Position numbers and translations under genes: made by a program | Origin: Hyphomicrobiaceae bacterium | GTDB taxonomy: Bacteria > Pseudomonadota > Alphaproteobacteria > Rhizobiales > Hyphomicrobiaceae | Reading direction: 5' to 3' | Length of the DNA stretch: 51,649 nucleotides | Assembly (NCBI GenBank): GCA_031409695.1 | Contig: JANNXS010000075.1 | Coordinates: 1-51,649, forward strand | The notes under the pieces: generated by a model | Databases searched by the model: none | The model's input: only the letters and a program-made list of their open reading frames with translations | Told to the model about the DNA's origin: nothing | In this document: positions 7,111-43,596 of the stretch, piece by piece | Numbering within the stretch: the first letter of the stretch is position 1 | Layout of the letters: the number at the start of each line of letters is the position of its first letter

Positions 7111-7202
7111 GTGCTTGTCCCAAGTGGGCAGCTGCTATACGGAAACGCCGTGCTCAGGGTGGCTAGTCGAGCAAACAACTTCACTTGGGGATGAGGGTAA
7201 CA

Positions 7203-7847: not shown

Positions 7848-8002
7848 CATCCCTTGACGCATGCGGGCGCGCTCACTACCTCTTAAGTGATGCAATCATG
7901 ACAATGATCGGCGACGCCGGTCGCGCCGGTCTGACCTATTCCGTGTTACAACTGCTTGTCTCGACGTGCAGATGAAGCGATCGAATCCCCAGGAGAAAAT
8001 CC

Positions 8003-8335: not shown

Positions 8336-8415
8336 GCGTCTCTTACAGCGTGTGTGTTTGTGTCGCCTGTCGCGTTAGTCGCGACGGGCGATGTCGATTC
8401 TAGAGATGCTGAAGT

Positions 8416-9348: not shown

Positions 9349-9399
9349 CGGCGACGCCCAGGCGCAACGAGGCCCGAGCGCAGCGACGATCGCACGCGA

Positions 9400-10524
9400 T
9401 CATAAGACCCCAAAAGCCGCAGCCCGCGCGGCTTCAATCGCCGCCGCCTGATGTGCCAGGAGCGGCGAGGCTGGGAGCCCGCTCATGCGCTTAGCAATCG
9501 CATTTTCGATTCCCGCCACATGGCCCGACAACGTCTCAAAGATCGGCAGTGCCAGGAACGGGGCTGAGGGCGCGTGATAGCCGCCCTCATGCGAGAGCAC
9601 GAGCCGGCCGCCGCATAAGTCTGCTGCAGCCGACTTCATCGCAGCCGTCATCCAGCGGAAATCTTCCGGCCCAAGCGTCATCCGGCCAAGTGCGTCGTGA
9701 TTGCCGGCATCCAGGCCGCTGGCGACGAAAATGAACTCTGGTTTAAATGCCTGCAGTGCCGGCAGGACAATCCTCTCAAATGCAGCCGTGTACGCACCTG
9801 TGCCCGATCCTGGCGGCAGCGGCACATTGATGGACGTGCCCTTGCCGCTGCCACTCCCCGTCTCGGAAATGGCGCCAAATGGCGGATTGCCCGCCTGCGG
9901 AAACAGCGCCTCCTGATGCAGCGAAATGGTCAGGACAGAAGGGTCGCCGTAAAACACCGTCTGCGTGCCATTGCCGTGGTGCACGTCCCAGTCGACAATC
10001 GCGATGCGCCCAACGCCGTGATTGGCCTGTAGCGCGCGCACGGCAACGGCTATGTTGTTGAACACGCAAAAGCCCATGCTCCCGTCAGGCCCGGCATGGT
10101 GTCCCGGTGGCCGCACGAGCGCATAGGCATTGGCGACTTGCCCGAGGACGACCGCCTCAGCCGCCGCCAGCGTCGCACCAGCCGCAAGCAATGCAATCTC
10201 ATAGCCACCAGCACTCGTGAAGGCGCTGAGGCCAAGTTGCCCGCCCTGCGCACCTGAAATGGCCTGCACCTCGGCCAAGTGCCGCGCCGTGTGCACGCGC
10301 CGGATATCCGCGACGGTCGCCGCCTCTGGCGTGATCACGGCGAGGTGCTGGGTAAAGCCGCTGGCATCGAGCAAATTCTTGATCCGGCGCTTTGCTTCCG
10401 GGTTCTCCGATGCCTCGCCTGGCTGCACCCATCCGATGGCCCGCATCGGGCCAGCGAAGGCGCCTCCGTCAAACCACATCATGCGCTCGTGCCAGACCAA
10501 CCCCGTCGCCAATTCGTCCGCCAT
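9400..10524 (-). CDS. Histone deacetylase-family amidohydrolase (HDAC class II-like / acetylpolyamine amidohydrolase-like)
   Basis: Motifs RPPGHHA, DWDVHHGNGTQ and SHEGGY. Start set at ATG 10524 (GGGGGAG Shine-Dalgarno upstream); the ORF track starts at a GTG at 10548. Confidence 0.9.
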   Translation of the reverse strand: MADELATGLVWHERMMWFDGGAFAGPMRAIGWVQPGEASENPEAKRRIKNLLDASGFTQHLAVITPEAATVADIRRVHTARHLAEVQAISGAQGGQLGLSAFTSAGGYEIALLAAGATLAAAEAVVLGQVANAYALVRPPGHHAGPDGSMGFCVFNNIAVAVRALQANHGVGRIAIVDWDVHHGNGTQTVFYGDPSVLTISLHQEALFPQAGNPPFGAISETGSGSGKGTSINVPLPPGSGTGAYTAAFERIVLPALQAFKPEFIFVASGLDAGNHDALGRMTLGPEDFRWMTAAMKSAAADLCGGRLVLSHEGGYHAPSAPFLALPIFETLSGHVAGIENAIAKRMSGLPASPLLAHQAAAIEAARAAAFGVL

Positions 10525-10759
10525 AGCGTCAACTCCCCCAAACGGCACGCATGGTCGAGCATCTCATATCGGGGGCCGCATGCAAGACGCGCTGACCACG
10601 TTGCCCGCGGCCTTACGCCAGACGCCGGTTGAATGAGGGACTGTCGACTTGAGGACTTGTGTCCGTACCCGCCCACCCGCATTGTGCCCTCCGCCAGGGT
10701 GCCACGCAGTGCGCCAGCTCGCATTGTAAACGGCGGCACGTCGAACAGCAGAGCCACCC

Positions 10760-11359
10760 ATGACCACATTGATTGCAGGCCTCGTCACTTTCATCGGCAT
10801 CCATCTGGTCCCGACCGTTCCGTCCTTGCGCGACAGCCTGCGCGAGCGTTTTGGTGCCAACGGGTATAAAATACTCTTCTCCGTGCTCTCGTTTGCGACG
10901 TTCATGCTGATTGTATGGGGCTATGGCGAAGCGCGACGCTTGCCAGCGGCAGTCAACCCGCAACTCTGGGTGCCACCAACCTGGGGCCGTCATGTCACGT
11001 ACCTGCTGATGCTCCCGGCCATGATCTGCCTCGTCGCGTCCAATGTGCCCTCACGCGTGCGCGATCTGGTCAAGCATCCGCTTCTGCTGGCAACGAAACT
11101 GTGGGCCCTTGGCCATCTGTTCGTGCGCGGCGATCTCGTCTCCTTGATTCTGTTTGGCTCGCTGCTCGCCTACGCTGTCTATGATCGCATCTCCGTTAAA
11201 AAGCGCGCCGCGCAAGGGGCGCAGGTGTCTGGGCCGCTTGGGGATCGCAAAGGACAGCTGATGGGCGACGTCGTCGTCATCGGCGGTGGTGTTGCGCTGT
11301 ATCTTGCCTTTGTGTTCTGGCTGCACGCTTGGTTCATCGGCGTCGCCATCGTGCGGTAA
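10760..11359 (+). CDS. nnrU: NnrU family membrane protein
   Basis: 199-aa polytopic membrane protein whose N-terminus (MTTLIAGLVTFIGIHLVP...) and length are typical of NnrU. Confidence 0.65.
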   Translation: MTTLIAGLVTFIGIHLVPTVPSLRDSLRERFGANGYKILFSVLSFATFMLIVWGYGEARRLPAAVNPQLWVPPTWGRHVTYLLMLPAMICLVASNVPSRVRDLVKHPLLLATKLWALGHLFVRGDLVSLILFGSLLAYAVYDRISVKKRAAQGAQVSGPLGDRKGQLMGDVVVIGGGVALYLAFVFWLHAWFIGVAIVR

Positions 11360-11378
11360 AGCATTCGGGGATGACGTC

Positions 11379-14309
11379 ATGCCAGATCTCGCCGATGCGA
11401 TCACCCGAGCGCCGGTCTTGCATGATCTAGCGCTCAGTGCCCGGCACCGGAGCGAGCTCGATCAGGTCATCGCCAACGACCCGACACTCACGGCCCTACG
11501 CGCGGTGCTCACGAAGCCCGCCGTTGCGGCTCTGTTAGATGGCGTTTTCAGTGCGTCGGCCTATCTCACGGGGATTGCGCTGCGGCGTCCAGCGATTTTG
11601 CAACGTGCGCTGACAGCCGATCCGTCGTTGCAGATGGCGGAGCGAGCCACGGAACTCGCACGCGACATGGCCCTGGCGACGACGCTGGCTGAGGCCATGC
11701 GGCCGCTGCGCCTGTTTAAATCCGATGCGGCACTCTTTCTGGCGCTCGCCGACGTTGGCGGCATCTACCCAGACGTTGAGGTATCGCGCGGGATCGCATT
11801 TGTGGCTGACACGGCCGTCCGCGAGGCCCTTAGGTTCTTGTTTCGCCAGGCGCAAGCGCGCGGCGACTGGCTCGAAGGCGCCCCCCAAGCAGAAACTCGG
11901 TCCGGCTACATGGTCATCGCCATGGGCAAGCACGGGGCGCACGAACTCAACTATTCCTCCGACATTGACCTGATCGTATTTTTCGACCCGGACAAGAGCG
12001 CCAGCAAACTTGCCGAAAAGCACGATCAACAAACCTTTTTTGTGCGCCTCACCCGTGATCTCGTGCGCCTGCTGCAGGAGCGGACCGAGCACGGCTATGT
12101 CTTCCGCACGGATCTGCGCTTGCGCCCAGATCCAGGTGCCATGCCGATCGCGATCCGCCGCGAGACAGCGCTCAATTACTACGAGAGCTTCGGCCAGAAC
12201 TGGGAGCGCGCGGCCATGATCAAGGCGCGCGTGATCGCGGGCGATTTTGATGCGGGCCAAAGTCTACTTGGCGAGCTGCGGCCCTTCATCTGGCGCAAGT
12301 ATCTTGATTTTGCCGCCATTGCCGACATTCAAGCCATGAAGCGACAGATCCACGCAGTGAAGGGCTTTGGCGAAATCCGCGTTGGCGGCCACAACATCAA
12401 GCTCGGTCGTGGCGGCATTCGCGAGATCGAGTTCTTTGTGCAAACCCAGCAGTTGATTGCCGGTGGGCGGCAGGTCGATCAGCGCTCGCCCGAGACTTTG
12501 CTGGCTCTAAGACAGCTCGAAGCGCGCAACTGGATCACGCCGTCGGTGCGCGAGGACCTGCACAAGGCCTACGTGCACCTGCGCACGATCGAACATCGAC
12601 TGCAAATGCTCGACGATGAGCAGACCCAGACGCTTCCCAACGATGCAGAGGGTCTCGCGCGACTTGCGCACTTTGCTGGATATGCTGACACGGCCGCATT
12701 TTCCGAGGCTTTGACCAAGACGCTCGAAACCGTGCAGCGCCATTATGTGCGCCTGTTTGAGAAGGCGCCTGCGCTCAGCTCCGGCACAGCCAATATGGTG
12801 TTTGCCGGCGAAGCCGACGATCCCGCAACATTGCAAGCGCTCGCTGACCTGGGCTTTGGCAAGCCGGCGGGTGTGATCGCCCTGGTCCGTGGCTGGCATC
12901 ATGGCCGCTATCGGGCCGTGCGTTCAGCCCGCGCGCGCGAACTGCTGACCGTCGTGCAGCCGCTGCTGATTTCAGCCATCGCCAAGACCGCCGATCCCGA
13001 CGATGCGATCCTGGCATTTGACCGATTTCTGTCTGAGTTGCCGTCTGGTGTGCAGTTGTTTTCACTGCTCAAGGAAAACCTGAGTTTGCTGGATCTGGTG
13101 GCGGCGGTCATGGGCACCGCGCCGCGCCTCGCAACGGTGCTCAGCCGTCACCGCCGTGTGCTTGATGCGGTTCTCGATCCGGGCTTCTTCGGCGCGCTCG
13201 CAAACCGCGATATGTTACGCGGCATTGTCAAATCTGAAATGGCGACAGCTACCGATTTACAGACGGCGCTCGAGCGCGCGCGCGCCGTCGGTCACGAGCA
13301 AGCGTTCCTGATCGGCGTGCGTGTGCTGACGGGCACCATCGAAGCTGACAGGGCTGGCGGCGCCTATGCGCTGCTGGCTGATCAATTGATCGACGCGCTC
13401 GCCAGCCGCGTGCAAGCGGAGATGGAGCGGTCCCACGGTCGTGTCGCGGGTGGCTGTGCCGTGGTCATTGCCATGGGCAAGCTGGGTGGCCGTGAGATGA
13501 CGGCATCATCGGACCTCGACCTGATTGTGGTCTACGATTTCCAGCCGAACGCTGTGGCGTCCGATGGACCAAAGCCCCTGGCACCAACGGAATACTATGC
13601 CCGTTTCACGCAACGCCTGATAGCGGCGTTCAACGCCCAAACGGCCGAAGGTCGACTGTATGAAATCGACATGCGCCTGCGCCCTTCCGGGCAGAAGGGA
13701 CCCGTTGCGACACAGCTGACAAGCTTCATCGACTATCAAGCCAAAGACGCCTGGACCTGGGAGCACATGGCGCTGACGCGCGCGCGCGTCGTGACGGGTT
13801 CGCCCGACCTCACAGCCAAGGTCGAGCGGACGATCAACGACACACTGACGCGGCCCCGAGACCGCGCCAAAATCGCCGCCGACGTGCGGGAAATGCGCGC
13901 GCTCATCGCGGCCGAAAAGGGCACAACCGACATCTGGGACCTGAAGCAAGTGCGCGGCGGTCTCGTGGATCTAGAATTCATCGCCCAGTATCTGCAGTTG
14001 GTGTCGGCTGCAGAAACCCCCGACGCGCTTGATCAGAACACGTCTCATGCCCTGGCGAAATTGCACGCGGCGGGCCACTTGGCCGCGGAACCTGCCGCTC
14101 AATTGCTCGCAGCTGCGACCCTGCTGCACAACTTGACCCAGGTGCTGCGCCTCTGCCTTGACGCGCCCTTCGATCCTTTAAAGGCGCCTGATGGCCTCAA
14201 CATGCTGCTTGCACGCGCGGCCAATCTGCCATCGTTTGCAGCGCTCGACGCACACCTGCGCGCGACCGTCGCTGATGTCGCGCGCCTGTTCGATGAACTT
14301 GTCCGTTGA
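11379..14309 (+). CDS. glnE: Bifunctional glutamine synthetase adenylyltransferase/adenylyl-removing enzyme
   Basis: Two nucleotidyltransferase repeats (GKHGAHELNYSSDIDLI and GKLGGREMTASSDLDLI), about 976 aa. Start moved to ATG 11379 to avoid overlapping nnrU. Confidence 0.93.
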   Translation: MPDLADAITRAPVLHDLALSARHRSELDQVIANDPTLTALRAVLTKPAVAALLDGVFSASAYLTGIALRRPAILQRALTADPSLQMAERATELARDMALATTLAEAMRPLRLFKSDAALFLALADVGGIYPDVEVSRGIAFVADTAVREALRFLFRQAQARGDWLEGAPQAETRSGYMVIAMGKHGAHELNYSSDIDLIVFFDPDKSASKLAEKHDQQTFFVRLTRDLVRLLQERTEHGYVFRTDLRLRPDPGAMPIAIRRETALNYYESFGQNWERAAMIKARVIAGDFDAGQSLLGELRPFIWRKYLDFAAIADIQAMKRQIHAVKGFGEIRVGGHNIKLGRGGIREIEFFVQTQQLIAGGRQVDQRSPETLLALRQLEARNWITPSVREDLHKAYVHLRTIEHRLQMLDDEQTQTLPNDAEGLARLAHFAGYADTAAFSEALTKTLETVQRHYVRLFEKAPALSSGTANMVFAGEADDPATLQALADLGFGKPAGVIALVRGWHHGRYRAVRSARARELLTVVQPLLISAIAKTADPDDAILAFDRFLSELPSGVQLFSLLKENLSLLDLVAAVMGTAPRLATVLSRHRRVLDAVLDPGFFGALANRDMLRGIVKSEMATATDLQTALERARAVGHEQAFLIGVRVLTGTIEADRAGGAYALLADQLIDALASRVQAEMERSHGRVAGGCAVVIAMGKLGGREMTASSDLDLIVVYDFQPNAVASDGPKPLAPTEYYARFTQRLIAAFNAQTAEGRLYEIDMRLRPSGQKGPVATQLTSFIDYQAKDAWTWEHMALTRARVVTGSPDLTAKVERTINDTLTRPRDRAKIAADVREMRALIAAEKGTTDIWDLKQVRGGLVDLEFIAQYLQLVSAAETPDALDQNTSHALAKLHAAGHLAAEPAAQLLAAATLLHNLTQVLRLCLDAPFDPLKAPDGLNMLLARAANLPSFAALDAHLRATVADVARLFDELVR

Positions 14310-18799: not shown

Positions 18800-19852
18800 T
18801 CAAGACCGAACAGTGACAGGCACGGCGACGGCCGTAAACCCCGGACCCAGCGCCGACATGAGGCGGATCCCAGGCGTTGCGTCCGCCAGCAGGCGTTGCA
18901 GAACAAACAGCACCGTTGGCGCTGACATGTTGCCGTGGTCGTGCAGGACGTCGCGTTCCGTGTCGAGCGAGCCGGCCGCAATATCGAGCGACGCCTCGAG
19001 CGCTTCTAATACCTTGGTGCCGCCGGGATGAAAGCCGAAGCGGTGAATCGACTCCCGCGTCAGCGAAAGCTGTTCAAGAAAACCTTGCACGACTGGCGAG
19101 ATCTGACGCCGGACGAACGGCGGAATATCTCGATCAAAGACAACCTCCAACCCGTCGCGGCTCACGTCCCAACCCATGATGCGTAGCGTGTTGGGCCATG
19201 TGTACTGACAACCGACGCCAACGATGTGCCGATCCCCGGGTCGCGCCGTCGTCAGAACCGCGGCGGCAGCACCATCGCCAAACAGCGCCGTTGCGACGAT
19301 GTTCGATTTTGTCAGAGTGTCTTGATGGAACGACAGCGTGCAGAGCTCCACTGCCACAACAAGAACCCTGGCTCCGGGAGAAGCGCGGGCCAACTGACTG
19401 CCGAGCGCCAATCCGCAAAGGCCGCCCGCGCAGCCCAAGCCAAACACGGGTACACGCATAATATCGGGCCTGAAACCGAGTTCGTCGGCGGCTCGCGCCT
19501 CCAAGGTCGGGGTGGCGATGCCGGTTGAACTTATCGTGATAACGGCGTCAACATCTGCGGCCTTGATCCCTGCAGCGCTCAAAGCGTCGCGTGCGGCTTC
19601 AACAAATAAGCGTCCGGCGACCTTGATGTAGGCCGCATTCCGCTCCTCCCACCCGCGCGGTTGAAGATACCATTCAATAGGCATGGCTGTCGCCCGGCTG
19701 GCGATCCCAGCATTGGTAAATACGGGCGCGAGGCGATGAAAGTCTGGAAAGCGGTGCTGAAACTTGTCACGCGCCGCGGCGAGGGCGTCGGCCTGTGACA
19801 GCCGATGCTCGGGGAGGGCTGTGCCAAGCCCCATAAGAGCGATATCGACCAT
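18800..19852 (-). CDS. Type III polyketide synthase (chalcone/stilbene synthase family)
   Basis: Catalytic Cys in FGLGCAGG, His in FHPGGTKVL, Asn in GNMSAPTV; 350 aa from ATG 19852 with a GAGAGG Shine-Dalgarno. The ORF-track N-terminal extension to 20056 is rejected. Confidence 0.9.
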   Translation of the reverse strand: MVDIALMGLGTALPEHRLSQADALAAARDKFQHRFPDFHRLAPVFTNAGIASRATAMPIEWYLQPRGWEERNAAYIKVAGRLFVEAARDALSAAGIKAADVDAVITISSTGIATPTLEARAADELGFRPDIMRVPVFGLGCAGGLCGLALGSQLARASPGARVLVVAVELCTLSFHQDTLTKSNIVATALFGDGAAAAVLTTARPGDRHIVGVGCQYTWPNTLRIMGWDVSRDGLEVVFDRDIPPFVRRQISPVVQGFLEQLSLTRESIHRFGFHPGGTKVLEALEASLDIAAGSLDTERDVLHDHGNMSAPTVLFVLQRLLADATPGIRLMSALGPGFTAVAVPVTVRS

Positions 19853-20024
19853 ACTTAACCTCTCAACAACGCTCTGACGCATACGGCGGGTCGACCTGAC
19901 CGGATTGGCTCTGCACCAACTGAAGACGTGGCTGAGGGTCGGTGACATCGTGCGCAACTCTGCAACGCGCCGGGACAGACGCGCGGCCGCGCTGGACTTC
20001 TCGGCGCCACGGGGCCAAACATGA

Positions 20025-20105
20025 CCCATGAGCGATGGGTCGCTCGTCTTGCCCATGAGCGATGGGTCGCTCGTCTCGCCCCTGAGCGACGGATCGCTCG
20101 CCTAA
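20025..20105 (+). repeat. 3 x 27-bp tandem repeat, each unit carrying the palindrome GAGCGA-N4-TCGCTC
   Basis: Units lie at 20025-20051, 20052-20078 (26/27 identical to unit 1) and 20079-20105 (degenerate). The palindromes are at 20030-20045, 20057-20072 and 20084-20099. The array ends 18 nt before the ATG of the SBP gene. Confidence 0.9.
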
Positions 20106-20122: not shown

Positions 20123-21739
20123 ATGCGCGCACAGCCAATCAAATTCAGTATCGGGTCGATGGCCCTGGGCCTGCTGGCCAGCGTGGCAGTCGACGCGCTC
20201 TCAGCCAGCGCGGCACTCGCCCAGACGCCCAAGGACACCGTTGTCATGGCCAAACAGATCGATGACATCATTTCGCTCGATCCGGCCGAAGCGTTCGAGT
20301 TTTCTGGCGTTGAAGTGGTCACCAACGTCTATGACAAGTTGATCGGCATTGATCTCGCCAAGAACAACGCACTCACGCCGGAACTGGCCGAGAGCTGGAT
20401 CGTTAGCCCGGACAACCTCACCTATACTTTTAAGCTTCGGAAAGGCGTAAAGTTCCACTCCGGCAACGCGATGACGTCAGCCGACGTGGTCTACTCGTTC
20501 CAACGCGCCGTCACCTTGAACAAATCACCGGGTTTCATCCTGCTGCAATTCGGCTTCACCAAGGAAAACGTGCTTGAGAAAATCAAAGCGCCAGACGCGG
20601 ATACTGTTGTGATCACGGTGTCGAAGCCCTTTGCGCCTTCATTCTTCTTGAACTGCCTGACATCGGGTGTCGCAAGCGTTGTCGACAGCAAGACTGTCAT
20701 GGCAAACGTGAAGGGCGATGACTTTGGCAACGAGTGGATGAAGCTGAACTCGGCTGGATCGGGCGCATATTCTGTTCGCGCCTACCGTCCGAACGAGCAG
20801 TATGCCCTTGAAGCCCATGCCGCCTGGTACAAGGGCGCGCCGAAGAACAAGCGCGTGATCGTGCGCCATGTGGCCGAGCCAGCCTCGCAGCGCCTTCTGC
20901 TCGAAAAAGGCGACATCGACATCGCCCGCAACCTGACCAAGGACCAATTGGCAGCTGTCAAGACGAAGCCGGAAATCGCCATCACCCAGGGCGACAAAGG
21001 CTACATCTTGTATTTGGGCCTGAACACCAAGAACGCCAACTTCGCCAAGCCTGAGGTGCGCGAGGCCATGAAGTGGCTGGTCGACTATTCATCGATCGAA
21101 ACCAACATCGTCGAAGGCACCTACAAGCCGCACCAGGCATTCCTCCCCAAGGGCTTCCTCGGCGCAATCGACGATAAGCCCTACAAGTTCGACCCCGCAA
21201 AAGCCAAGGAACTGCTCGCCAAGGCCGGATTGCCGAACGGCTTCACCGTCACCATGGACGTGCGCAACACCTCGCCGATCCAGGACATCGCCCAGGCCAT
21301 TCAGGCACAATGGGCGCAAGCGGGCGTCAAGCTTGAGCTGATCCCGGGCGACGGCAAGGCGACACTGACCAAATATCGTGCACGCACGCATGATATCTAC
21401 ATTGGCCAGTGGGGGCCGGATTATCTCGATCCCCACACAAACGCTGAAACCTTCGCCATCAACGAGAACAACGGCGAAGACGCCAAGTCAAAGACACTCG
21501 CCTGGCGCAACGCTTGGGACATCCCTGAGATGACCAAGATCACGCAGGCAGCCGTGCTTGAAACCGACAGCGCCAAGCGTGCGACCACCTACGGCACGCT
21601 GCAGCGCGAGCACCAGAAGATCTCGCCGTTCGTGATCATGTTCCAGCAGGTCGAAGTCTCGGCGCAGGTCAAGTCCGTCGGCGGCTGGATCATAGGACCG
21701 AGCTCTGACTCGAACTTCTACAACACGATTACGAAGTAA
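20123..21739 (+). CDS. ABC transporter substrate-binding protein, family 5 (peptide/nickel/opine type)
   Basis: Signal peptide (MRAQPIKFSIGSMALGLLASVAV...ALA) and family-5 SBP blocks (FKLRKGVKFHSGN). GGAGGA Shine-Dalgarno 4-9 nt upstream of ATG 20123. Confidence 0.85.
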   Translation: MRAQPIKFSIGSMALGLLASVAVDALSASAALAQTPKDTVVMAKQIDDIISLDPAEAFEFSGVEVVTNVYDKLIGIDLAKNNALTPELAESWIVSPDNLTYTFKLRKGVKFHSGNAMTSADVVYSFQRAVTLNKSPGFILLQFGFTKENVLEKIKAPDADTVVITVSKPFAPSFFLNCLTSGVASVVDSKTVMANVKGDDFGNEWMKLNSAGSGAYSVRAYRPNEQYALEAHAAWYKGAPKNKRVIVRHVAEPASQRLLLEKGDIDIARNLTKDQLAAVKTKPEIAITQGDKGYILYLGLNTKNANFAKPEVREAMKWLVDYSSIETNIVEGTYKPHQAFLPKGFLGAIDDKPYKFDPAKAKELLAKAGLPNGFTVTMDVRNTSPIQDIAQAIQAQWAQAGVKLELIPGDGKATLTKYRARTHDIYIGQWGPDYLDPHTNAETFAINENNGEDAKSKTLAWRNAWDIPEMTKITQAAVLETDSAKRATTYGTLQREHQKISPFVIMFQQVEVSAQVKSVGGWIIGPSSDSNFYNTITK

Positions 21740-21783
21740 GGTCGGCTCGAACTAAAGCTCGTGTTGATCTGGCACACGACGTG

Positions 21784-21811
21784 GGGGCGGGCGTTCACGC
21801 TCGCCCCTTTT
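21784..21811 (+). terminator. Rho-independent terminator after the SBP gene
   Basis: GGGGCGGGCG-TTCA-CGCTCGCCCC 10-bp stem followed by TTTT. Confidence 0.75.
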
Positions 21812-21845
21812 GCGCACTTTCAACCGAGTGGCATGACCGAGCGCG

Positions 21846-24455
21846 ATGAGAATAGAACTCCCCGACTTCTGCCTCGTCTTGCTGATCGGTGCCTCGGGCT
21901 CAGGCAAATCAACGTTCGCGCGCACGCATTTTAAACCGACGGAGATTATCTCATCGGACCATTATCGTGGCGTCGTTGATGATGATGAGAACAGCCTGGA
22001 GGCCAGCGGTGACGCGTTCGCGGCCTGCCACTTCGTCACGGCGACACGCCTCAAACGTCGCAAGCTGACGGTCATCGACGCAACCAACATCCGGCCCGAA
22101 GACCGCGACAAGTTCATCTCGATCGCGAAGCAATACCACGCCATCACTGTCGGCATCGTCATCGATCCCGGCGAGCGCGTCTGCCACGCCCGCAACGAGA
22201 CGCACCCCGATCGGCAATTTGGCCCGCACGTGGTGCGTAACCAGATGGCCAGCCTGCGCCGCGGACTAAATCGTCCCGATAAGGAGGGCATCCGCTACCT
22301 GCACTGGCTCGAGAGCGTCGACCAGATCTCCGCTGTAACCGTCACGCGAATCCGCACCTGGACCGATGCGCGCCATGTCGAGGGGCCGTTCGACATCATC
22401 GGCGATGTGCATGGCTGCGCGGATGAGTTGCAGGAGCTACTGGAGAAACTCGGGTACGTGGTCGCCTGGGCCGAGAGCCTCGGTCGTCGCACCGTCCGCG
22501 TCACGCCACCAACCGGCCGGCAAGCTGTGTTCGTTGGTGATCTCGTTGATCGCGGTCCGAATTCGCCGGATGTGCTGCGCATTGTCATGAGCCTGGTCGC
22601 CGACGGCCGCGGGCTTTGCGTGCTCGGCAACCACGACATCAAGTTTTGGCGCTGGCTCTCGGGAAAAACCGTGACGCTGACCCATGGCCTCGATAAGACC
22701 GTCGCGCAGATGGAGGCGGCCGCCAAAGTCGACACGTATTTCAAACGCGAGGTGGCGACGTTTGTTGGCAATCTTGTCAGCCACTTCTGGCTCGATGGTG
22801 GGCGCCTTGCCGTGGCGCATGCTGGTGTCAAAGACGAGATGATCGGACGCGCCTCGGGCGCGGTGCGCGAGTTCTGCCTGTACGGTGAAACAACCGGCGA
22901 GAGCGACGCGTTTGGCCTGCCAATCCGGCACAACTGGACGGCCGATTACCGGGGTAAAACCGTCGTCGTGTATGGCCACACACCGACGCTCAACGCCGAA
23001 TGGTTGAACGACACCATCTGCATCGATACGGGTTGCGTGTTCGGCGGCCGTCTCACGGCCCTGCGCTGGCCGGAGCGCGTGTTGGTTGATGTACCGGCGC
23101 GCCAAGTCTACGCCGAGCCGAAACGTCCGCTTGCGCCACCACCTGAGCCACAACTCACGGCCCAACAAGCGCAGGACGATCTGCTCGACATTGATCTGGT
23201 CATTGGCAAACACATCGTCACAACGACACTCGGCAAGACAGTGACCATAGACGCGGCCCAGTCGGCCGCGGCGCTTGAAATGATGTCGCGTTTCGCCGCC
23301 AATCCAAAGTGGCTGATCCATCTGCCGCCGACCATGTCGCCATGCGCAACATCACTCACCCAAGATCCACCGGACACGACGAAATCGCACAGCCTCGCAG
23401 ATATGCTTGAACAGCCGGCCGCCGCCTTCGAGTATTACCGCGACGAAGGCGTTACCGACTTGGTCGTGCAAGAAAAGCACATGGGGTCGCGCGCGCTTTT
23501 GCTCGTCTGCCGGGATGTTGATACGGCCCGCATGCGCTTTGGCGTGACCACCGGCGAAACGGGCATGATCATGACCCGGACCGGTCGTGCCTTCTTCAAC
23601 GATGGCGTCACTGGCGAAGCGTTGCTGGCGCGTGTGCGCACAGCGATGACCGAAGTCCGTTTCTTTGAACGACACGCAACCGATTGGGCGCTTCTCGATG
23701 CGGAGCTTATGCCGTGGTCGGCCAACTTGCAGGGGCTCATTGCGGGCCAATACGCACCGACCGGCGCGGCGGCCACGTCCGACCTGAGCGTGACGGCGCA
23801 GCTATTAGCTGAGGCTGCTACCCGCGATCCATCTGCTGTAGACATCGCCGCGCGCTTTGCGGCTCGCACGTCACGCGCCGAAAAATATGTCGACGCCTAT
23901 CGTCGGTATTGCTGGCCCGTGACATCGCTCGGTGACTACCGCATCGCGCCATTCCATGTGCTCGCAACCGAGGGTGCCGTGCACATGGACAAGGAGCACA
24001 TCTGGCATATGACTGAATGCGCGCGGCTCGCTGAGCCCGGCGATCAGATTCTTATCGCGACGGCACACCACGTGGTCGATGTCACCAATGACGCGAGCAT
24101 CGAACAGGCGACGGACTGGTGGCTCGCGCTGACATCGATGGGTGGCGAGGGCATGGTGGTGAAACCACGCAGTTTTATCGCGCGCGGTCGCAAGGGCATT
24201 GTCCAACCGGCCATTAAGGTGCGCGGGCCCGAGTATCTGCGCATCATCTATGGCCCCGAGTACGACCTGCCCGAACACCTCACCCGGTTGCGCAAGCGCG
24301 GTCTCGGCAAGAAGCGTTCATTGGCCTACCGTGAGTTCATTCTCGGCCATGAGGCCCTGACGCGTTTCGTTGCCAAGCATCCCCTGCGCAAAGTGCACGA
24401 GGCCGTGTTCGCCATCCTCGCGCTCGAAAGTGAGCCGGTTGATCCGCGACTTTGA
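21846..24455 (+). CDS. pnkp: Polynucleotide kinase-phosphatase (Pnkp): 5'-kinase / 2',3'-phosphoesterase / ligase-like adenylyltransferase
   Basis: 869 aa. N-terminal P-loop GASGSGKST. Central calcineurin-type phosphoesterase motifs GDVHGC, GDLVDRGP, GNHD and GHTP. C-terminal nucleotidyltransferase lysine motif EKHMGSR and EGMVVKP. The three-domain order matches bacterial Pnkp. Confidence 0.9.
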   Translation: MRIELPDFCLVLLIGASGSGKSTFARTHFKPTEIISSDHYRGVVDDDENSLEASGDAFAACHFVTATRLKRRKLTVIDATNIRPEDRDKFISIAKQYHAITVGIVIDPGERVCHARNETHPDRQFGPHVVRNQMASLRRGLNRPDKEGIRYLHWLESVDQISAVTVTRIRTWTDARHVEGPFDIIGDVHGCADELQELLEKLGYVVAWAESLGRRTVRVTPPTGRQAVFVGDLVDRGPNSPDVLRIVMSLVADGRGLCVLGNHDIKFWRWLSGKTVTLTHGLDKTVAQMEAAAKVDTYFKREVATFVGNLVSHFWLDGGRLAVAHAGVKDEMIGRASGAVREFCLYGETTGESDAFGLPIRHNWTADYRGKTVVVYGHTPTLNAEWLNDTICIDTGCVFGGRLTALRWPERVLVDVPARQVYAEPKRPLAPPPEPQLTAQQAQDDLLDIDLVIGKHIVTTTLGKTVTIDAAQSAAALEMMSRFAANPKWLIHLPPTMSPCATSLTQDPPDTTKSHSLADMLEQPAAAFEYYRDEGVTDLVVQEKHMGSRALLLVCRDVDTARMRFGVTTGETGMIMTRTGRAFFNDGVTGEALLARVRTAMTEVRFFERHATDWALLDAELMPWSANLQGLIAGQYAPTGAAATSDLSVTAQLLAEAATRDPSAVDIAARFAARTSRAEKYVDAYRRYCWPVTSLGDYRIAPFHVLATEGAVHMDKEHIWHMTECARLAEPGDQILIATAHHVVDVTNDASIEQATDWWLALTSMGGEGMVVKPRSFIARGRKGIVQPAIKVRGPEYLRIIYGPEYDLPEHLTRLRKRGLGKKRSLAYREFILGHEALTRFVAKHPLRKVHEAVFAILALESEPVDPRL

Positions 24456-24469
24456 CGGCTGTTGCACCG

Positions 24470-26062
24470 CTACAATCGCTTGGCCGCATCGAGCTTTGCG
24501 AGCGTGGCGTCGGCGGTCTCAAGCAGGGCTGCGCGCTTTTCGGCCGTCATCTTGTTCCAACTGCTGTACATCGTTGTCATGCGTGGATTTCCGCCCAGCT
24601 TTTCGCGGTGGCGATCAAGGAAAGACCAGTACAACGCGTTCATCGGGCACGAGGTCGGCCCGGTCGTCTGCTTCACGTCATAGCGGCACGTCTTGCAGTG
24701 GTTTGACATCCGATTGATGTAAGCGCCCGAGGCGACATAAGGCTTTGAGGCGAGAACGCCGCCGTCGCCGAACTGGCTCATGCCCAGAGTGTTCGGCAAT
24801 TCGACCCACTCATAGGCATCAACATAAACCGCCAGATACCACTCATGCAGCTCCTGCGGAGAAACGCCGGCCAGGAGCGCGAAATTGCCGGTGACCATGA
24901 GGCGCTGAATGTGGTGAGCGTAGGCATGCTCGATGGTCTGTGACACCGCCGCGCGGACGCAAGCCATATCTGTCTCAGCGTTCCAGTAAAACTCGGGAAC
25001 GGGGCGCGTATGGGCGAAGTAATTCTCTGCCACATAGGCCGGCATTTTATGCCAGTAGATGCCGCGCACATACTCACGCCACCCGATGATCTGCCGGATA
25101 TAGCCCTCAGCGGCGTTGAGCGGCACACGGCCCTCCGTGTACGCAGCCGCTACGCGTCGACAGACGGTAAGTGGGTCAATCAGACCGATGTTGATGTAGC
25201 CGCCAAGCAACGAGTGATACAGAAACGGCTCCCCCTCCAGCATCGCGTCCTGGTAGTCACCGAAGCGGGCGAGGCCATGGGCGACGAAATGTTCGAGCGC
25301 TCGCTCGGCATCCGCGCGGGTGACAGCAAAACCGAACGGCTCCAACGTGCCGATATGGTCGGGAAAGCGTTGCGCCACGAGGTCGAGAACATCTCGTGTG
25401 ATCGCATCGGGCACCACGCGGAAAGGCTGCGGCATGAACAGGTCCGCTTTGGCCGGCTTGCGGTTGTCGTGGTCAAAGTTCCACTGGCCACCTGCGGGTT
25501 GATCGCCCTCCATAAGCAGCCCGGTTTTGCGCCGCATGTCGCGATAGAAGAACTCCATGCGCAGCTGTTTGCGGCCGTCCGCCCAGGTGGCAAACTCGCG
25601 GCCCGAACAGATGAAGCGGTCATCGTCGCGGATGTCGACGGGGACCCCGATATCCTCAGCCCACCCGCGCATATCTTCAAGCAAGCGCCACTCACCGGGC
25701 GACGTGACCATGACACGTGCGGGCTTGTGCGTTTTAACGGCGCGGGCGACTTCTCCTCGGAGCGAACCGCTGTTGGCTGGATCATCGAGACGGCGATAGT
25801 CGACGTTCAGCCAGCCCGCCTCTCTGAGTTCCTCGGCAAAATGGCGCATGGCCGAAAAAACAAACGCGATTTTCTTCTTATGGTGGCGCACGTACGTTGC
25901 CTCGGCCTGGACCTCAGCCATCAGCACGACATCGCGCGCCGGATCCGCGTCTGCGAGGCTCGACAGACTTGGCGTGAGATGGTCCCCGAGTACGAGAATG
26001 AGGTTTCGCCCAGAGGCGGGTCGTGTGGAGGCGGGTTGTTTAGAAGTGGGGCGGGGCGGCAT
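24470..26062 (-). CDS. Cryptochrome/photolyase-family protein of the FeS-BCP type ((6-4) photolyase PhrB/CryB-like)
   Basis: 530 aa. The N-terminus LILVLGDHL and RHHKKKIAFVFSAMRHF are typical of the photolyase-related/FeS-BCP group. Four Cys are positioned as in the 4Fe-4S ligand set (DMAC..., HCKTCRY, TSCP). Confidence 0.8.
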   Translation of the reverse strand: MPPRPTSKQPASTRPASGRNLILVLGDHLTPSLSSLADADPARDVVLMAEVQAEATYVRHHKKKIAFVFSAMRHFAEELREAGWLNVDYRRLDDPANSGSLRGEVARAVKTHKPARVMVTSPGEWRLLEDMRGWAEDIGVPVDIRDDDRFICSGREFATWADGRKQLRMEFFYRDMRRKTGLLMEGDQPAGGQWNFDHDNRKPAKADLFMPQPFRVVPDAITRDVLDLVAQRFPDHIGTLEPFGFAVTRADAERALEHFVAHGLARFGDYQDAMLEGEPFLYHSLLGGYINIGLIDPLTVCRRVAAAYTEGRVPLNAAEGYIRQIIGWREYVRGIYWHKMPAYVAENYFAHTRPVPEFYWNAETDMACVRAAVSQTIEHAYAHHIQRLMVTGNFALLAGVSPQELHEWYLAVYVDAYEWVELPNTLGMSQFGDGGVLASKPYVASGAYINRMSNHCKTCRYDVKQTTGPTSCPMNALYWSFLDRHREKLGGNPRMTTMYSSWNKMTAEKRAALLETADATLAKLDAAKRL

Positions 26063-26144
26063 CGTTGAGGCCTCATGCTATGGTCTGTGGCCGCCGTATG
26101 AACGTAATCTGCGACGGCGCCATCTTGTGATGAATTGAGGTACG

Positions 26145-27593
26145 ATGACGACGCTTGTTTGGTTCCGCCAGGATCTGCGCCTTGCGGATAATCCCGCGCT
26201 AGCGGCCGCCGTGGCGCGTGGCGCAATCGTGCCAGTTTACATCTTGGATGACACATCCGGCGTGCGTGCAATCGGGGCTGCCGGGCGCTGGTGGTTGCAC
26301 CATAGCCTTACCGCACTGTCGAAATCACTTGGCGGGCTGGTTTTGCGCCGGGGTGATCCGTCGACGGTTCTTGCGGCCCTGGTGTCTGAGACCGGCGCCA
26401 CCCGCGTGGTCTGGAATAGATGCTACGAACCAGAAGCCATTGCCCGTGACACGGCCATCAAGACCGCGCTCACAGCGTCGGGCATTGAGGTCGAGAGCTT
26501 CAATGGCAGTCTGTTGTTTGAGCCGTGGGAGCTTAAAACACTGACCGGCGGGCCATACAAAGTGTACTCACCGTTCTGGCGTGCGTGCTTAAAGCTGCCC
26601 GTGTCCGCGCCAGTTTCAGCGCCGAAGCTGAAACCCACGCTGCATGGGGCCAAAAGCGATCCGCTTGCCAGTTGGACACTTTTGCCGAAACAGCCGAATT
26701 GGGCCGCCGCGTTCGCGCCCGAGTGGACCCCAGGGGAAACAGGCGCGCGCGCGAGGCTGGAGACGTTTTTCGTCGGCGGCCTCGCCGGCTATGGCGAATT
26801 GCGCAATCGGCCGGATTTGCCGAACATCTCGCGTCTGTCGCCACATTTGCACTGGGGCGAGATTTCGCCGCGCCAGATTTGGGCCGCGACGCACATGCGC
26901 ATCGAGACATCCACCAGCCCGCGCGGTGACGCCGACAAGTTTCTCTCGGAAATTGGCTGGCGCGAGTTCGCCCATCATCTGTTGTTTCACTTCCCGACGC
27001 TGCCGACGCGCAACTGGAAACCGGCCTTTGACGCCTATCCGTGGTCAGATGATAAAGCCCAACTGGTTGCCTGGCAAAAAGGGCAGACCGGTTACCCCAT
27101 CGTCGATGCGGGGATGCGCGAACTGTGGGCGACGGGCTACATGCACAACCGCGTGCGCATGATCGTCGCCAGCTTCCTGATCAAACATCTGCGCATCGAT
27201 TGGCGCCAGGGCGAAGCTTGGTTCTGGGACACGCTGCTGGACGCCGACCTCGCCAACAACGCGGCCAGTTGGCAATGGGTGGCAGGCTGTGGCGCAGATG
27301 CCGCGCCGTATTTCCGCATCTTCAACCCCATGGAACAGGGGCGCAAATTCGACCCTAACGGCGACTATGTCAGGCGGTGGTGCCCGGAAATTGCGCGGCT
27401 GCCCAATACCGTGCTGCACGCACCCTTTGAGGCACCGGCCGAAATTTTACGTGCTTGTGGCGTGTCGCTTGGAAAGACCTATCCCCGCCCCATCGTTGAC
27501 CATGCGACCGCCCGTCAGGCAGCGCTTGCCGGATATGGTGCCGTCAAGGCCGCGGGGGCAGAGGCGGCTGATACCGTCGGTCAAAAGCGTTGA
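26145..27593 (+). CDS. phr: Deoxyribodipyrimidine (CPD) photolyase, class I
   Basis: N-terminus LVWFRQDLRLADNPAL; FAD-binding blocks TGYPIVDAGMRELWATGYMHNRVRMIVASFL and WQWVAGCGADAAPYFRIFNP. Confidence 0.93.
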   Translation: MTTLVWFRQDLRLADNPALAAAVARGAIVPVYILDDTSGVRAIGAAGRWWLHHSLTALSKSLGGLVLRRGDPSTVLAALVSETGATRVVWNRCYEPEAIARDTAIKTALTASGIEVESFNGSLLFEPWELKTLTGGPYKVYSPFWRACLKLPVSAPVSAPKLKPTLHGAKSDPLASWTLLPKQPNWAAAFAPEWTPGETGARARLETFFVGGLAGYGELRNRPDLPNISRLSPHLHWGEISPRQIWAATHMRIETSTSPRGDADKFLSEIGWREFAHHLLFHFPTLPTRNWKPAFDAYPWSDDKAQLVAWQKGQTGYPIVDAGMRELWATGYMHNRVRMIVASFLIKHLRIDWRQGEAWFWDTLLDADLANNAASWQWVAGCGADAAPYFRIFNPMEQGRKFDPNGDYVRRWCPEIARLPNTVLHAPFEAPAEILRACGVSLGKTYPRPIVDHATARQAALAGYGAVKAAGAEAADTVGQKR

Positions 27594-27676
27594 CCGACGG
27601 TATCAGCGTTTTCTGCTTGCGCGCGGCCGCCCCACCAACCCCGCGCGCGGATACCATCGGTCAGAAATCATGACCG
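27568..27676 (+). repeat. ~108-nt structured intergenic repeat, copy A (terminator hairpin + GC hairpin + small hairpin)
   Basis: Perfect 17-bp stem CTGATACCGTCGGTCAA-AAGCG-TTGACCGACGGTATCAG (27568-27606) followed by CGTTTTCT. Next comes GCGCGCGG-N14-CCGCGCGC, then CGGTCA-N7-TGACCG. Near-identical in reverse complement to 32381-32486. The first stem arm encodes the last codons of phr and the second arm contains its stop codon. Confidence 0.9.
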
Positions 27677-27682
27677 CTGTTA

Positions 27683-28374
27683 TTAGGCAAACATTTCGAA
27701 GACAGCCATTTGCGAGGCCGCACCGAGGCGCGCATCCTCTGGCCCGAGTGGAGAATTAGTTGCCATGTAGCCGAACGCCTCAGAGACGCGTGTTGCCCAG
27801 GCCGCAAACTCAGCCCGTGTCCACTCGAAGCGGTGATCGGGGTGGCGCAACTGCCCCGGTTTCATGGACTCGAATTTGGCGTTGTATTCGATATTCGGCG
27901 TTGTCACGACGATCACACCCGGACGCGCCATTTCAAACACAACACGCTCCACGGCGACCAATCGATCGGGATCGACGTGCTCGATCACCTCGACCAGTGA
28001 CGCGCCATCGAAGCCAGCGATGCGCTTGTCCCGATAGGTCAGCGCGCCCTGGATCAGCTTGATGCGCTGGCGCTCGGGGATCGTCTCGAGGCGCAAGCGC
28101 TTTGCCGCCATTTCAAGATCCCCAATGCTAACGTCGAGCCCGAGGATCTCGGTGAACTGCGTTTCAGCCAGCAACCGTTTCAACAGCTTGCCCGAGCCGC
28201 ACCCAAGATCGACCACGCGAGCGCAAAGGTGCACCGCGTCACTGTCGCCTCCGGGTAGAACATGTGCGCATGACCAAAGGCGAGTTCGATGGACTGCGTG
28301 CGCGTGGGGTTCTTGTGCAGGAGATAACCGAGGTCCGTCGCGGGCTGGTGCGTTGTGGTGACGGTGAGGAGCAT
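27683..28374 (-). pseudogene. hen1: hen1 (RNA 3'-terminal 2'-O-methyltransferase) remnant: internal deletion plus frameshift
   Basis: ATG 28374 (AAGGA Shine-Dalgarno) opens MLLTVTTTHQPATDLGYLLHKNPTRTQSIELAFGHAHMFYPEATVTRCTFAL, a Hen1-type N-terminus, and stops after 64 codons. From about 28216 downward a different frame encodes VVDLGCGSGKLL...VEVIEHV...RHPDHRFEWTRAEF, the complete Hen1 methyltransferase domain. The region between the two is absent. Confidence 0.78.
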
Positions 28375-28505
28375 GACCTATTTCCTTAGCACATGATCCC
28401 GACAGCGTGACGGCAATGGCGACAATCGAGGCTGACATGATTGTGCCGAGTTTCATACCTGAAGCGCGAAGACAACGTCAGCGAACAGCGCCCTTGGACC
28501 GCCCC

Positions 28506-28925
28506 CTACACCGACGAAGTCGGCTTGCCGCGTATGCCGCGCGAGCGGGATGGCTTGGCTGCGGACGGCGCAACCCCATGGACGCGACCCGCCAGCAAAG
28601 CGTCGATATCAGCAACCCAGCGCTCCGCAAGATCCTGCACGATGCCGACGGGCGAGAGCACAACGCCGTCCGAACGCAGGCGCTGCATCTGCTCATCGCG
28701 CCTCAAATGTCGGCCCACGGCTCCACCGTCGGCGACAACGCGCCACCAGGGAACGCCCTCGCGATCACCGTCATCAAGCGTTGCCAAGATATAGGCGACA
28801 TGGCGCGGCATGACCCGCAGGTGTGCGCCAATCTGTTTGTGGGTCACAACCCGCCCCAGCGGAATGCGCATGGCGATCGCCATCACGTCTGCCTTGATCC
28901 GTGTGTAGGCGTCAGATCCAGCCAT
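28506..28925 (-). CDS. MGMT-family / alkyltransferase-like (ATL) DNA-binding protein lacking the acceptor cysteine
   Basis: 139 aa with IPLGRVVTHKQIGAHL...VPWWRVV. The PCHR active-site position reads PWWR, i.e. no Cys, as in ATL/YbaZ-type proteins. Confidence 0.72.
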   Translation of the reverse strand: MAGSDAYTRIKADVMAIAMRIPLGRVVTHKQIGAHLRVMPRHVAYILATLDDGDREGVPWWRVVADGGAVGRHLRRDEQMQRLRSDGVVLSPVGIVQDLAERWVADIDALLAGRVHGVAPSAAKPSRSRGIRGKPTSSV

Positions 28926-28931
28926 GGCCCA

Positions 28932-29465
28932 TCATCCCGGCGTGCTCGGCGTCGCCCTCTTGGCCGCTTCAGTCGTTTTAGCAGTGAGCGCCGCAGCAAC
29001 CCGTGGTGACACAAACGACGTCACATTCCCCCCCATCTGCGCAATCTGGCGCACGAGGCTGGCTGTGATGTGGCGGACTCCAGGAGACGCTGGCAGAAAC
29101 ACGGTCTCGATATCCGGGGCCATGGCGCCGTTCATGCCAGACAGCTGCATCTCGTAGTCAAGATCCGTGCCGTCGCGCAGGCCACGGAAAATGCTGGTTG
29201 CTGCATGGGCACGGGCTGCATCAATGGTCAGTCCGGCGAATGTCACCGGCTTGATCTCGCAACGTGTTGCCGTGGAAATCGCAGTGCACTCAGCGGCCAG
29301 CAGGTAGATCTTTTCTTCGGTCGAAAACATCGGCGTCTTACCTGGATGCACGCCGATACCGATGATCAACACATCCACCAACCGCGCGGCACGGTTGATC
29401 TGGTCGAGGTGGCCAAGCGTCACCGGGTCAAAAGAGCCCGCGTAAAAACCAATTCGTTGCGCCAT
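28932..29465 (-). CDS. coaD: Pantetheine-phosphate adenylyltransferase
   Basis: [21 protein letters not shown] (nucleotidyltransferase T/HxGH motif) and ISSTLVR-like ITASLVRQ; 177 aa from the internal ATG 29465. Confidence 0.9.
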
Positions 29466-29599
29466 GGTAACCGTGGGGTGGGCGAGTGGCCGAAACCTAG
29501 CCGATACCACGCCGTGCCACATTATGTGTAATCGGTCACGGCCCAGAGCCGCACGTTCGATGCCTCTCGGCGACAAACTTGGTTACAAACTTTGCCCAA

Positions 29600-30167: not shown

Positions 30168-30602
30168 TCACTCCTGTCCATCGCGACGCGGTGTGGCGTA
30201 CGCACTGCGCAGGTGACGTCCAATGGCAAGGTTAGTGGCAACCAACGACGCGAAGGCGAGAGCAAGAAGGGTTAGCGTATATCCGGGCGATGGGCCGTAG
30301 GTCTCGCGCGGGGTCTCACCTGGAAACGTCGGCACTGCATTGATCATAGTAGGAGGCGGCAGCAATGCACTCGCGAGGCTGAGTTCGGGCGGTGGTGGAG
30401 CTGGGAAGGCAATGCTCGGCTCGATGTTGAATGCACCGGCCAAGACTGCAAACAAAAACAGTGCCGCGGCAAAATCGACGGCAGACCGCCGCAAAGAACG
30501 TGCGCTCGACACCACAAAATCTGCGGAAATCAGTTCAGCGGACCGTGTCGTTTCCATGTCACTCGTGTCCATGTCACTCGTGCCCATCTGTCCATATCCC
30601 AA
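30168..30602 (-). CDS. Hypothetical two-TM membrane protein
   Basis: 144-aa ORF with two hydrophobic segments (FAAALFLFAVLAGAF; LTLLALAFASLVATNLAI) and a Pro-rich loop. No family recognised. It contains a 15-bp in-frame tandem duplication at 30553-30582. Confidence 0.4.
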   Translation of the reverse strand: MGYGQMGTSDMDTSDMETTRSAELISADFVVSSARSLRRSAVDFAAALFLFAVLAGAFNIEPSIAFPAPPPPELSLASALLPPPTMINAVPTFPGETPRETYGPSPGYTLTLLALAFASLVATNLAIGRHLRSAYATPRRDGQE

Positions 30603-42058: not shown

Positions 42059-42120
42059 GGACGCCTCGATACGCAGAGAACAAACAGGATGCATGTGTGC
42101 TCTGCGACCAAGGCTGGAAC

Positions 42121-43522: not shown

Positions 43523-43596
<74 letters not shown>

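Follow-up and report, generated by a model that had tools for sequence, protein, structure and literature searches.

An intact pnkp gene, a broken hen1 gene, and the photolyase pair between them in a Hyphomicrobiaceae genome

The repair genes at the locus

Contig JANNXS010000075.1 of the Hyphomicrobiaceae bacterium assembly GCA_031409695.1 carries an intact gene for the RNA repair enzyme Pnkp, two photolyase genes, the remains of a gene for the Pnkp partner Hen1, and a gene for an alkyltransferase-like (ATL) protein. Here, we analyze a 51,649-nt stretch of that contig, which we call the window; all coordinates are window positions, and labels of the form L001 denote comparison loci or contigs retrieved in our scans. 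We consider it likely that the locus holds known nucleic-acid repair genes that lie side by side and are separately transcribed, and that a Pnkp/Hen1 pair has been caught decaying. We do not take it for a new repair system.

A first-pass annotation, made from the sequence letters alone, had proposed an intact pnkp, a broken hen1, and a photolyase pair between them. The profile searches that it called for bear this picture out. Specifically, the Pnkp, Hen1 remnant, FeS-BCP, photolyase, and ATL families are all confirmed, and each of the five genes listed here is backed by such searches. The features are as follows.

21846-24455, + strand: pnkp, 869 amino acids (TIGR04075; PF13671, PF00149, and PF16542)
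23718-23945, + strand: region of pnkp encoding amino acids 625-700, the helical insert (AlphaFold2 model and substitution counts)
24470-26062, - strand: FeS-BCP gene, a PhrB-type prokaryotic (6-4) photolyase gene, 530 amino acids (PF04244; match to 4DJA)
26081-26107, + strand: putative ECF11 (RpoE-ChrR)-like promoter motif, TGGTCT-N16-CGTAA, in the 82-bp spacer
26145-27593, + strand: phr, a PhrA-type (class III) cyclobutane pyrimidine dimer (CPD) photolyase gene, 482 amino acids (PF00875 and PF03441)
27567-27607, + strand: strong terminator-like hairpin with an 18-bp stem (terminator scan and inverted repeat I1)
27683-28374, - strand: hen1 pseudogene; codons 1 to ~52 at 28374-28220, methyltransferase half at 28219-27683 in another frame
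28506-28925, - strand: ATL gene, 139 amino acids (PF01035), adjoining the hen1 remnant on its upstream side and lying downstream of coaD on the same strand

The pnkp and FeS-BCP genes are convergent, with 14 bp between their stop codons (24456-24469), and FeS-BCP and phr diverge from a spacer of 82 bp (26063-26144); both distances had been given correctly in the first-pass annotation. Thus arranged, pnkp (+) and the hen1 remnant (-) converge across 3.2 kb that contains the two photolyase genes.

Pnkp is intact

The window Pnkp matches the NCBIfam equivalog TIGR04075 from end to end (positions 1-851 of 851) at 1278 bits, the cutoff being 750. It possesses the Pfam domains PF13671 (AAA_33), PF00149 (Metallophos), and PF16542 (PNKP_ligase), and its matches in the PDB span all three domains of C. 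thermocellum Pnkp (kinase, phosphatase, and ligase), whose structures are solved. The catalytic motifs GASGSGKST, GDVHGC, GDLVDRGP, GNHD, GHTP, and KHMGSR, on which the initial call of an intact 869-residue Pnkp had been based, are all present in the translation and align with those of 19 homologues. In pairwise comparisons within the clade defined below, every domain (kinase, phosphatase, or ligase) has a dN/dS of 0.08-0.19. The pnkp gene is intact and under purifying selection.

Two insertions vary among the closest Pnkp lineages. A 12-residue, clade-specific insertion at the start of the ligase domain (amino acids 505-516, nt 23358-23393) is present in the window, L019, L002, and L021, not in L020. 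An insertion of ~30 residues in the phosphatase domain occurs in L002 and L020 only.

The hen1 gene has lost its middle

On the minus strand, the open reading frame (ORF) at 27683-28456 encodes 257 amino acids that match only positions 284-461 of the 462-position Hen1 model TIGR04074, at 266 bits and below the cutoff of 340; a minus-strand hen1 remnant had been called here, and this partial match agrees. An ATG at 28374 on the same strand opens MLLTVTTTHQPATDLGYLLHKNP..., a canonical Hen1 N-terminus, in a frame different from that of the 257-residue ORF. A tblastn search with the full-length Hen1 of L024 (480 residues) places residues 1-56 at 28374-28207 and residues 300-476 at 28219-27695, again in different frames, and a DNA alignment of hen1 contains a single 742-column gap with its junction at 28220/28219. 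The gene has lost ~742 nt (codons ~54-299), out of frame, and has kept both ends. Because the true start and codons 1 to ~52 remain, the damage is an internal deletion and not a 5' truncation. This finding displaces the earlier suggestion of a rearrangement breakpoint at 28375-28505: the 5' end of hen1 is intact, and the lesion lies inside the gene at 28219/28220.

The deletion removed nearly the whole ligase-activating N-domain (PF12623) and the conserved helix that precedes methyltransferase motif I. The match of the remnant to the crystallized Anabaena methyltransferase domain (3JWJ) begins at chain residue 21. What was retained is in good order. Specifically, VVDLGCGSG, EVIEH, and DHRFEW, which represent motif I and the metal-binding residues, are intact and align with Anabaena Hen1 3JWJ, and the 229 retained codons contain no stop codon. 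For the same genome pairs, the ratio of Hen1 to Pnkp identity is 0.96-1.11 for the remnant versus 0.91-1.05 for intact pairs. Because the retained hen1 segments have diverged in step with Pnkp, we infer that hen1 and this pnkp are former partners that co-diverged vertically. The gene was probably functional until recently: the lack of stops, the preserved catalytic residues, and a divergence no faster than that of intact Hen1 together suggest that the deletion is evolutionarily recent.

The window falls away from the Pnkp-Hen1 cassette known from C. thermocellum and Anabaena variabilis in some respects and resembles it in others. Like that cassette, it encodes a full kinase-phosphatase-ligase Pnkp with all catalytic motifs, and its remnant is homologous to Hen1 at both ends. 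Unlike the cassette, the window hen1 is frameshifted, lacks its central codons, and sits on the other strand from pnkp at a distance, and the closest relatives of the window likewise have no hen1 upstream of pnkp. A precedent for a hen1 encoded apart from the healing and sealing genes comes from the Capnocytophaga Pnkp1-Rnl-Hen1 system (PMC4411300). There, however, Pnkp is split into Pnkp1 and Rnl, whereas the window has a classical trifunctional Pnkp; and Capnocytophaga Hen1 is ~20% identical to classical Hen1, whereas the window remnant is 72-77% identical to its classical neighbors.

Gene order in relatives

Synteny scans of one genome per species plus Joint Genome Institute (JGI) metagenomes yielded 34 loci. 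Among the 28 of these with upstream sequence and a Pnkp no more than 66% identical to that of the window, hen1 immediately precedes pnkp in the same orientation in every case (28/28), and the order pnkp then hen1 is never found (0/28). None of the 28 has a photolyase within 10 kb of pnkp. The JGI metagenome scan returned only Pnkp proteins of at most 65% identity, all at canonical loci, and the two closest homologues of the C-terminal part of Hen1 are also encoded upstream of a large gene. The canonical operon envisaged in the first-pass annotation is thus correct in being adjacent and co-oriented and reversed in its order, which is hen1 followed by pnkp.

The closest Pnkp proteins come from L019 (83% identity), L002 (82%), L020 (77%), and L021, L022, and L046 (71%). 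The window and its four nearest Pnkp lineages form a clade with 100% bootstrap support, in which the window is sister to L002 plus L019. No member of this clade has hen1 upstream of pnkp. In L002, L019, and L021, a PF01883 (DUF59-type) gene is directly upstream of pnkp; in L020, a rubrerythrin/VIT1 gene takes that place. Because the PF01883-pnkp order in L002, L019, and L021 reaches to the base of the clade, the uncoupling of hen1 from pnkp is probably older than the window lineage. A recent separation of the two genes finds no support in this distribution, and the separation probably predates this genome. The PF01883 gene itself (DUF59/Fe-S assembly type, 145 amino acids, at 9490-9924 in L002, 327-761 in L019, and 8235-8669 in L021) is 85-94% identical between loci.

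Downstream of pnkp, a photolyase gene recurs. In L019 and in L021/L022/L046, the gene downstream of pnkp, on its strand, encodes a photolyase that shares 74-80% identity with the window phr; the gaps are 88 bp and 3 bp, respectively. The window phr is likewise downstream of pnkp on the same strand, with FeS-BCP in between. The pnkp-phr linkage is real but limited to this clade. In the metagenome-assembled genome that holds L002, the closest genome-level relative, the phr orthologue (82% identity) is on a different contig from pnkp, between arsC and gmk. Elsewhere, a phr relative diverges from a FeS-BCP gene 72% identical to that of the window, within a three-photolyase cluster (L041/L042), or from an ATL-like gene (L043). 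In L046, an ATP-dependent DNA-ligase-like gene follows phr, convergent with it, in place of hen1. The divergent FeS-BCP/phr pair is a recurring unit, and the neighborhood is otherwise fluid.

Several details of these loci deserve mention in their own right. The L041 cluster (6225-11419) comprises a second photolyase (PF00875/PF03441) fused with DUF2256 in an operon, a DUF3253 gene with FeS-BCP, and the phr orthologue. The L046 gene (3762-4550, - strand) is a C-terminal fragment of a DNA-ligase-like gene whose family was assigned by eye from the translation. In the canonical locus L005, hen1 and pnkp are set apart by an unusual spacer of 487 bp (9514-10000), and pnkp has an apparent frameshift at 10656-10672; either a further cassette in decay or a fault of assembly may account for this.

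The helical insert of Pnkp

[quoted passage not shown] We took the bounds of this module from an AlphaFold2 model of the Pnkp ligase domain, which has a predicted local distance difference test score (pLDDT) of 86. The model places a two-helix hairpin at amino acids 626-688, between the strands that bear ligase motifs III and IIIa. On the strength of this model, the helical insert at amino acids 625-700, which holds this hairpin, would be the Hen1-binding module.

Substitutions specific to the window Pnkp are concentrated there, at 13 of 59 insert sites versus 38 of 636 sites elsewhere in the protein (Fisher p=1.2e-4). Some of the changes fall on sites that do not vary (A628, L667) or hardly vary (K627) among the other 19 sequences. 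The L021 insert carries a 15-residue deletion and four changes at sites that are otherwise invariant. No such excess is present in the inserts of L019, L002, or L020, which suggests that these three lineages still have Hen1 somewhere. For the lineages of the window and L021, the insert changes fit a partnership with Hen1 that has been lost or altered.

Photolyases, a putative promoter, and the ATL gene

Both photolyases have relatives of solved structure. The FeS-BCP protein scores 287 bits against PF04244 and 683 bits against A. tumefaciens PhrB (4DJA) over 508 residues (20-527), with all four Fe-S cysteines aligned. These matches place the gene, as first annotated, among the prokaryotic (6-4) photolyases (PhrB, CryB), and (6-4) repair activity is predicted. 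For phr, the photolyase called in the first pass stands, at 26145-27593, and its assignment to class I does not. Because the protein scores 565 bits against PhrA (4U63) and 293 against the E. coli class I enzyme (1DNP), it is of class III, or PhrA type; plant cryptochromes fall between, at ~386 bits. It reaches 349 bits against PRK10674, below the cutoff of 506, and its best NCBIfam model is a plant cryptochrome subfamily, scored below that model's cutoff. The Agrobacterium PhrA/PhrB pair (PMC3204975) thus provides the best solved relatives of the window photolyases. The window genes are arranged divergently and flanked by pnkp and the hen1 remnant, and their activities are predicted from sequence.

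Throughout the 51.6-kb window, TGRTCY-N15-17-CGTAW is matched only once, by the motif TGGTCT-N16-CGTAA, which lies 38 bp before the phr start. The same ECF11-like motif precedes the orthologous phr in L019 and in L040, which belongs to the same metagenome-assembled genome as L002. It resembles the published ECF11/RpoE-ChrR consensus, TGATCC-N16-CGTA; the core of that regulon includes the photolyase gene phrB (PMC5507510). No ECF11-type motif was found upstream of pnkp or within the 3' end of the L021 pnkp. The 18-bp-stem hairpin ends phr, between the convergent phr and hen1 remnant, and a second hairpin, noted by eye, follows the solute-binding-protein gene and precedes pnkp. The alternating strands, the terminator after phr, and the promoter motif specific to phr point to separate transcription units.

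The ATL protein matches PF01035 only, lacks the N-terminal MGMT domain, and has PWWRV in place of PCHRV. Its best PDB match, a weak one (33 bits), is the Vibrio ATL 2KIF. Because PWWRV aligns with PWFRV of that protein, the window ATL is without the acceptor cysteine, in keeping with the earlier description of a Cys-less MGMT-type gene. Both proteins have a single MGMT-type DNA-binding domain with tryptophan in place of the cysteine; the window gene adjoins a hen1 remnant. ATLs are also known from E. coli and S. pombe.

The wider window

The surrounding genes are housekeeping genes, among them ftsH, tilS, pal, trx, glnE, coaD, recR, and secB, and GC content is uniform up to 45 kb. The only Rfam families in the window are two tRNAs. 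The segment at 43523-48645 contains a tRNA-Gln (43523-43596), a serine resolvase gene (43890-44459), and several helix-turn-helix and unassigned ORFs, with GC content down to 0.52-0.57; it resembles a small element that has integrated at a tRNA gene. Beside secB, at 41489-42831, are two tandem paralogous genes for retropepsin-like aspartyl proteases (PF13975/PF13650).

Two short tandem repeats were also recorded. One, of 27 nt in 2.8 copies with 91% match, lies at 20025-20100 between a type III polyketide synthase-like gene (18800-20056, - strand) and the solute-binding-protein gene, and it inflates the 5' ends of both flanking ORFs as listed. The other, of 15 nt in 2.7 copies, lies at 30548-30587 in a region with no family match, between an unassigned ORF and an enoyl-CoA hydratase gene. 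Finally, the coaD ORF (28932-29576, - strand) is listed with a TTG start that precedes the conserved start by 37 codons; translation probably begins at an ATG near 29465.

A partnership probably in decay among ordinary repair genes

The account that we favor runs as follows. The window would be an ordinary chromosomal stretch of a Hyphomicrobiaceae-like alphaproteobacterium, in which hen1 ends a co-oriented coaD-ATL-hen1 array on the strand opposite pnkp and was inactivated by its out-of-frame deletion. In the clade of this pnkp, hen1 no longer precedes pnkp, which typically has a DUF59-family gene before it and a CPD photolyase gene after it. Deprived of the Hen1 N-domain, Pnkp may still heal RNA ends via its kinase and phosphatase, while Hen1-activated sealing and 2'-O-methyl marking would be impossible in the absence of another hen1 outside this locus. 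The cluster of substitutions in the helical insert is consistent with a lost or altered partnership. The two photolyases would act as a PhrA/PhrB-type pair on CPD and (6-4) lesions, with an ECF11 (RpoE-ChrR-type) promoter for photo-oxidative stress probably driving phr separately, and the ATL would flag O6-alkylguanine for excision repair. The notion is that the juxtaposition of these genes records the local gene-order history of the clade and does not make them an integrated machine.

Some observations weigh against this account. The putative phr promoter matches its consensus at four of six -35 positions and four of four -10 positions, and the window contains no rpoE-chrR genes. A 183-residue methyltransferase ORF with intact catalytic residues and a GGAGG 13 nt before its GTG start persists in the hen1 remnant, so a residual product is possible. 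A second intact hen1 elsewhere in the genome is also possible: the hen1 search covered the window, in which tblastn detected no second hen1 piece, no copy of the missing hen1 middle, and no PF01883 gene. The order pnkp-phr is kept down to 71% Pnkp identity, with the two genes 3 bp apart in L021, and could reflect a functional link. Finally, repeats mark no breakpoint.

Alternative histories and functions

The present order appears to call for one or more inversions with a breakpoint where the hen1 stop meets the pnkp start, and for one or more further rearrangements. One candidate, which we regard as possible though doubtful, is an inversion of pnkp-FeS-BCP-phr (~21.74-27.68 kb) that split an ancestral array of coaD-ATL-hen1 followed by pnkp, (FeS-BCP), and phr. 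Undoing it restores both hen1-pnkp and pnkp-phr and so fits both synteny facts; the 3' end of hen1 and the 5' end of pnkp are both complete; and the recent constraint on hen1 is easier to explain if that gene was near pnkp. Such an inversion leaves the PF01883-pnkp order in L002, L019, and L021, which spans the base of the clade, to be explained by additional rearrangement. Moreover, there are no inverted repeats or remnants at 21740-21845 or 27594-27682, and the gene after phr in L046 is DNA-ligase-like and not hen1. More broadly, a search for inverted or direct repeats at 21740-21845, 24456-24469, 26063-26144, 27594-27682, and 28375-28505 returned only short matches at chance level.

Less probable, in our view, is a co-regulated unit for the repair of light-damaged nucleic acids, in which Pnkp, possibly independent of Hen1, would join the photolyases in dealing with RNA or DNA damaged by UV or photo-oxidation. 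The recurrence of pnkp-phr in three lineages at 71-83% Pnkp identity speaks for such a unit, as does the company that phr keeps: the ATL gene in L043, the DNA-ligase-like gene in L046, and the photolyase cluster in L041. The Pnkp ligase domain is, in addition, under purifying selection. We found no paper linking Pnkp/Hen1 with a photolyase in the literature searched. The distribution argues the other way, with no photolyase near pnkp in the 28 more distant loci and with pnkp and phr on different contigs in the closest genome. So does the layout, in which strands alternate, a terminator closes phr, and the promoter motif belongs to phr and is absent upstream of pnkp; and synteny at such divergence can persist without a functional link. 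The repair neighborhood raised in the first-pass annotation therefore holds to the extent that pnkp-phr recurs in the closest clade, and falters in that shared regulation is not visible.

A related scenario, slightly less probable still, gives Pnkp a new career. Pnkp would have been freed from the Hen1 operon and recruited beside a CPD photolyase (gene order DUF59, pnkp, phr), and at least in the lineages of the window and L021, Hen1 would have been lost and the insert remodeled. The enzyme would serve in Hen1-independent healing, and possibly sealing, of nucleic-acid breaks caused by light or UV, and not in ribotoxin immunity.

It is also improbable that the truncated hen1 is alive, its 183-257-residue ORF yielding a stand-alone 3'-terminal RNA 2'-O-methyltransferase. 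The ORF is open, the gene caller predicted a 183-residue product (P0241), and motif I and the metal-binding residues (EVIEH, DHRFEW) are intact; furthermore, Hen1's C-terminal half, when isolated, acts autonomously as a methyltransferase (PMC3675462). Against activity stands the late start of the match to the crystallized domain, at residue 21: the conserved helix that every homologue has before motif I (LxEQRL...) is gone. The ORF also does not share the reading frame of the native start. Nor do databases offer a parallel, their "short" homologues being contig-end fragments or split genes. Between the window and an independent contig (L044), all four single-nucleotide polymorphisms (SNPs) fall in the remnant, three of them clustered, a sample too weak to test for relaxed constraint. 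"Short Hen1" was considered separately as a stand-alone class and rejected: of the two contexts examined, one was a fragment at a contig end and the other a split gene that precedes a large pnkp-like gene.

The first-pass annotation had proposed a different inversion, of hen1-phr-FeS-BCP with breakpoints at 24456-24469 and 28375-28505, as the event that split a canonical pnkp-hen1 operon. This history is very improbable. It draws on the convergent placement of pnkp and the hen1 remnant and on their co-divergence as partners, and reversing it would yield an order seen in none of the 28 canonical loci, all of which have hen1 first. In addition, the hen1 start and 5' end are intact and the lesion is internal; phr would be put on the strand opposite pnkp, unlike in L019, L021, and L046; and no inverted repeats occur at the proposed breakpoints.

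Weakest of all is an assembly artifact, for although the phr/hen1 junction (27594-27637) and the FeS-BCP/phr junction lie outside independent contig coverage, FeS-BCP also diverges from phr in L041, and two Logan contigs from run SRR20217191 reproduce stretches on either side: L001 equals window 21622-25484 at 100% identity, spanning the solute-binding-protein gene, pnkp, and FeS-BCP, and L044 equals window 27638-29389 at 99.77% identity (4 SNPs, no gaps), spanning coaD, ATL, and the hen1 remnant with an identical deletion. Because these independent assemblies carry both the pnkp/FeS-BCP junction and the hen1 deletion, neither is an artifact.

What a Pnkp without Hen1 may tell us

Here, we have argued that the locus most likely preserves a Pnkp/Hen1 pair in decay amid separately transcribed repair genes. 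The photolyases and the ATL are well-known repair enzymes, and a new mechanism is not required to account for them. The mildly new element is a clade in which pnkp has been uncoupled from hen1 and recurrently neighbors a photolyase gene, with one lineage seen just after the inactivation of hen1.

The view in the literature is that pnkp and hen1 always form one operon and that the Pnkp ligase is inactive without the Hen1 N-domain. The window locus and its four closest relatives represent a lineage in which that coupling is broken. The window genome, in particular, would be a natural hen1 knockout, with an intact pnkp and a lineage-specific change in what appears to be the Hen1-binding module. 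It thus offers a test case for the role of Pnkp without Hen1, and for the meaning, if any, of the photolyase that recurs at its side.

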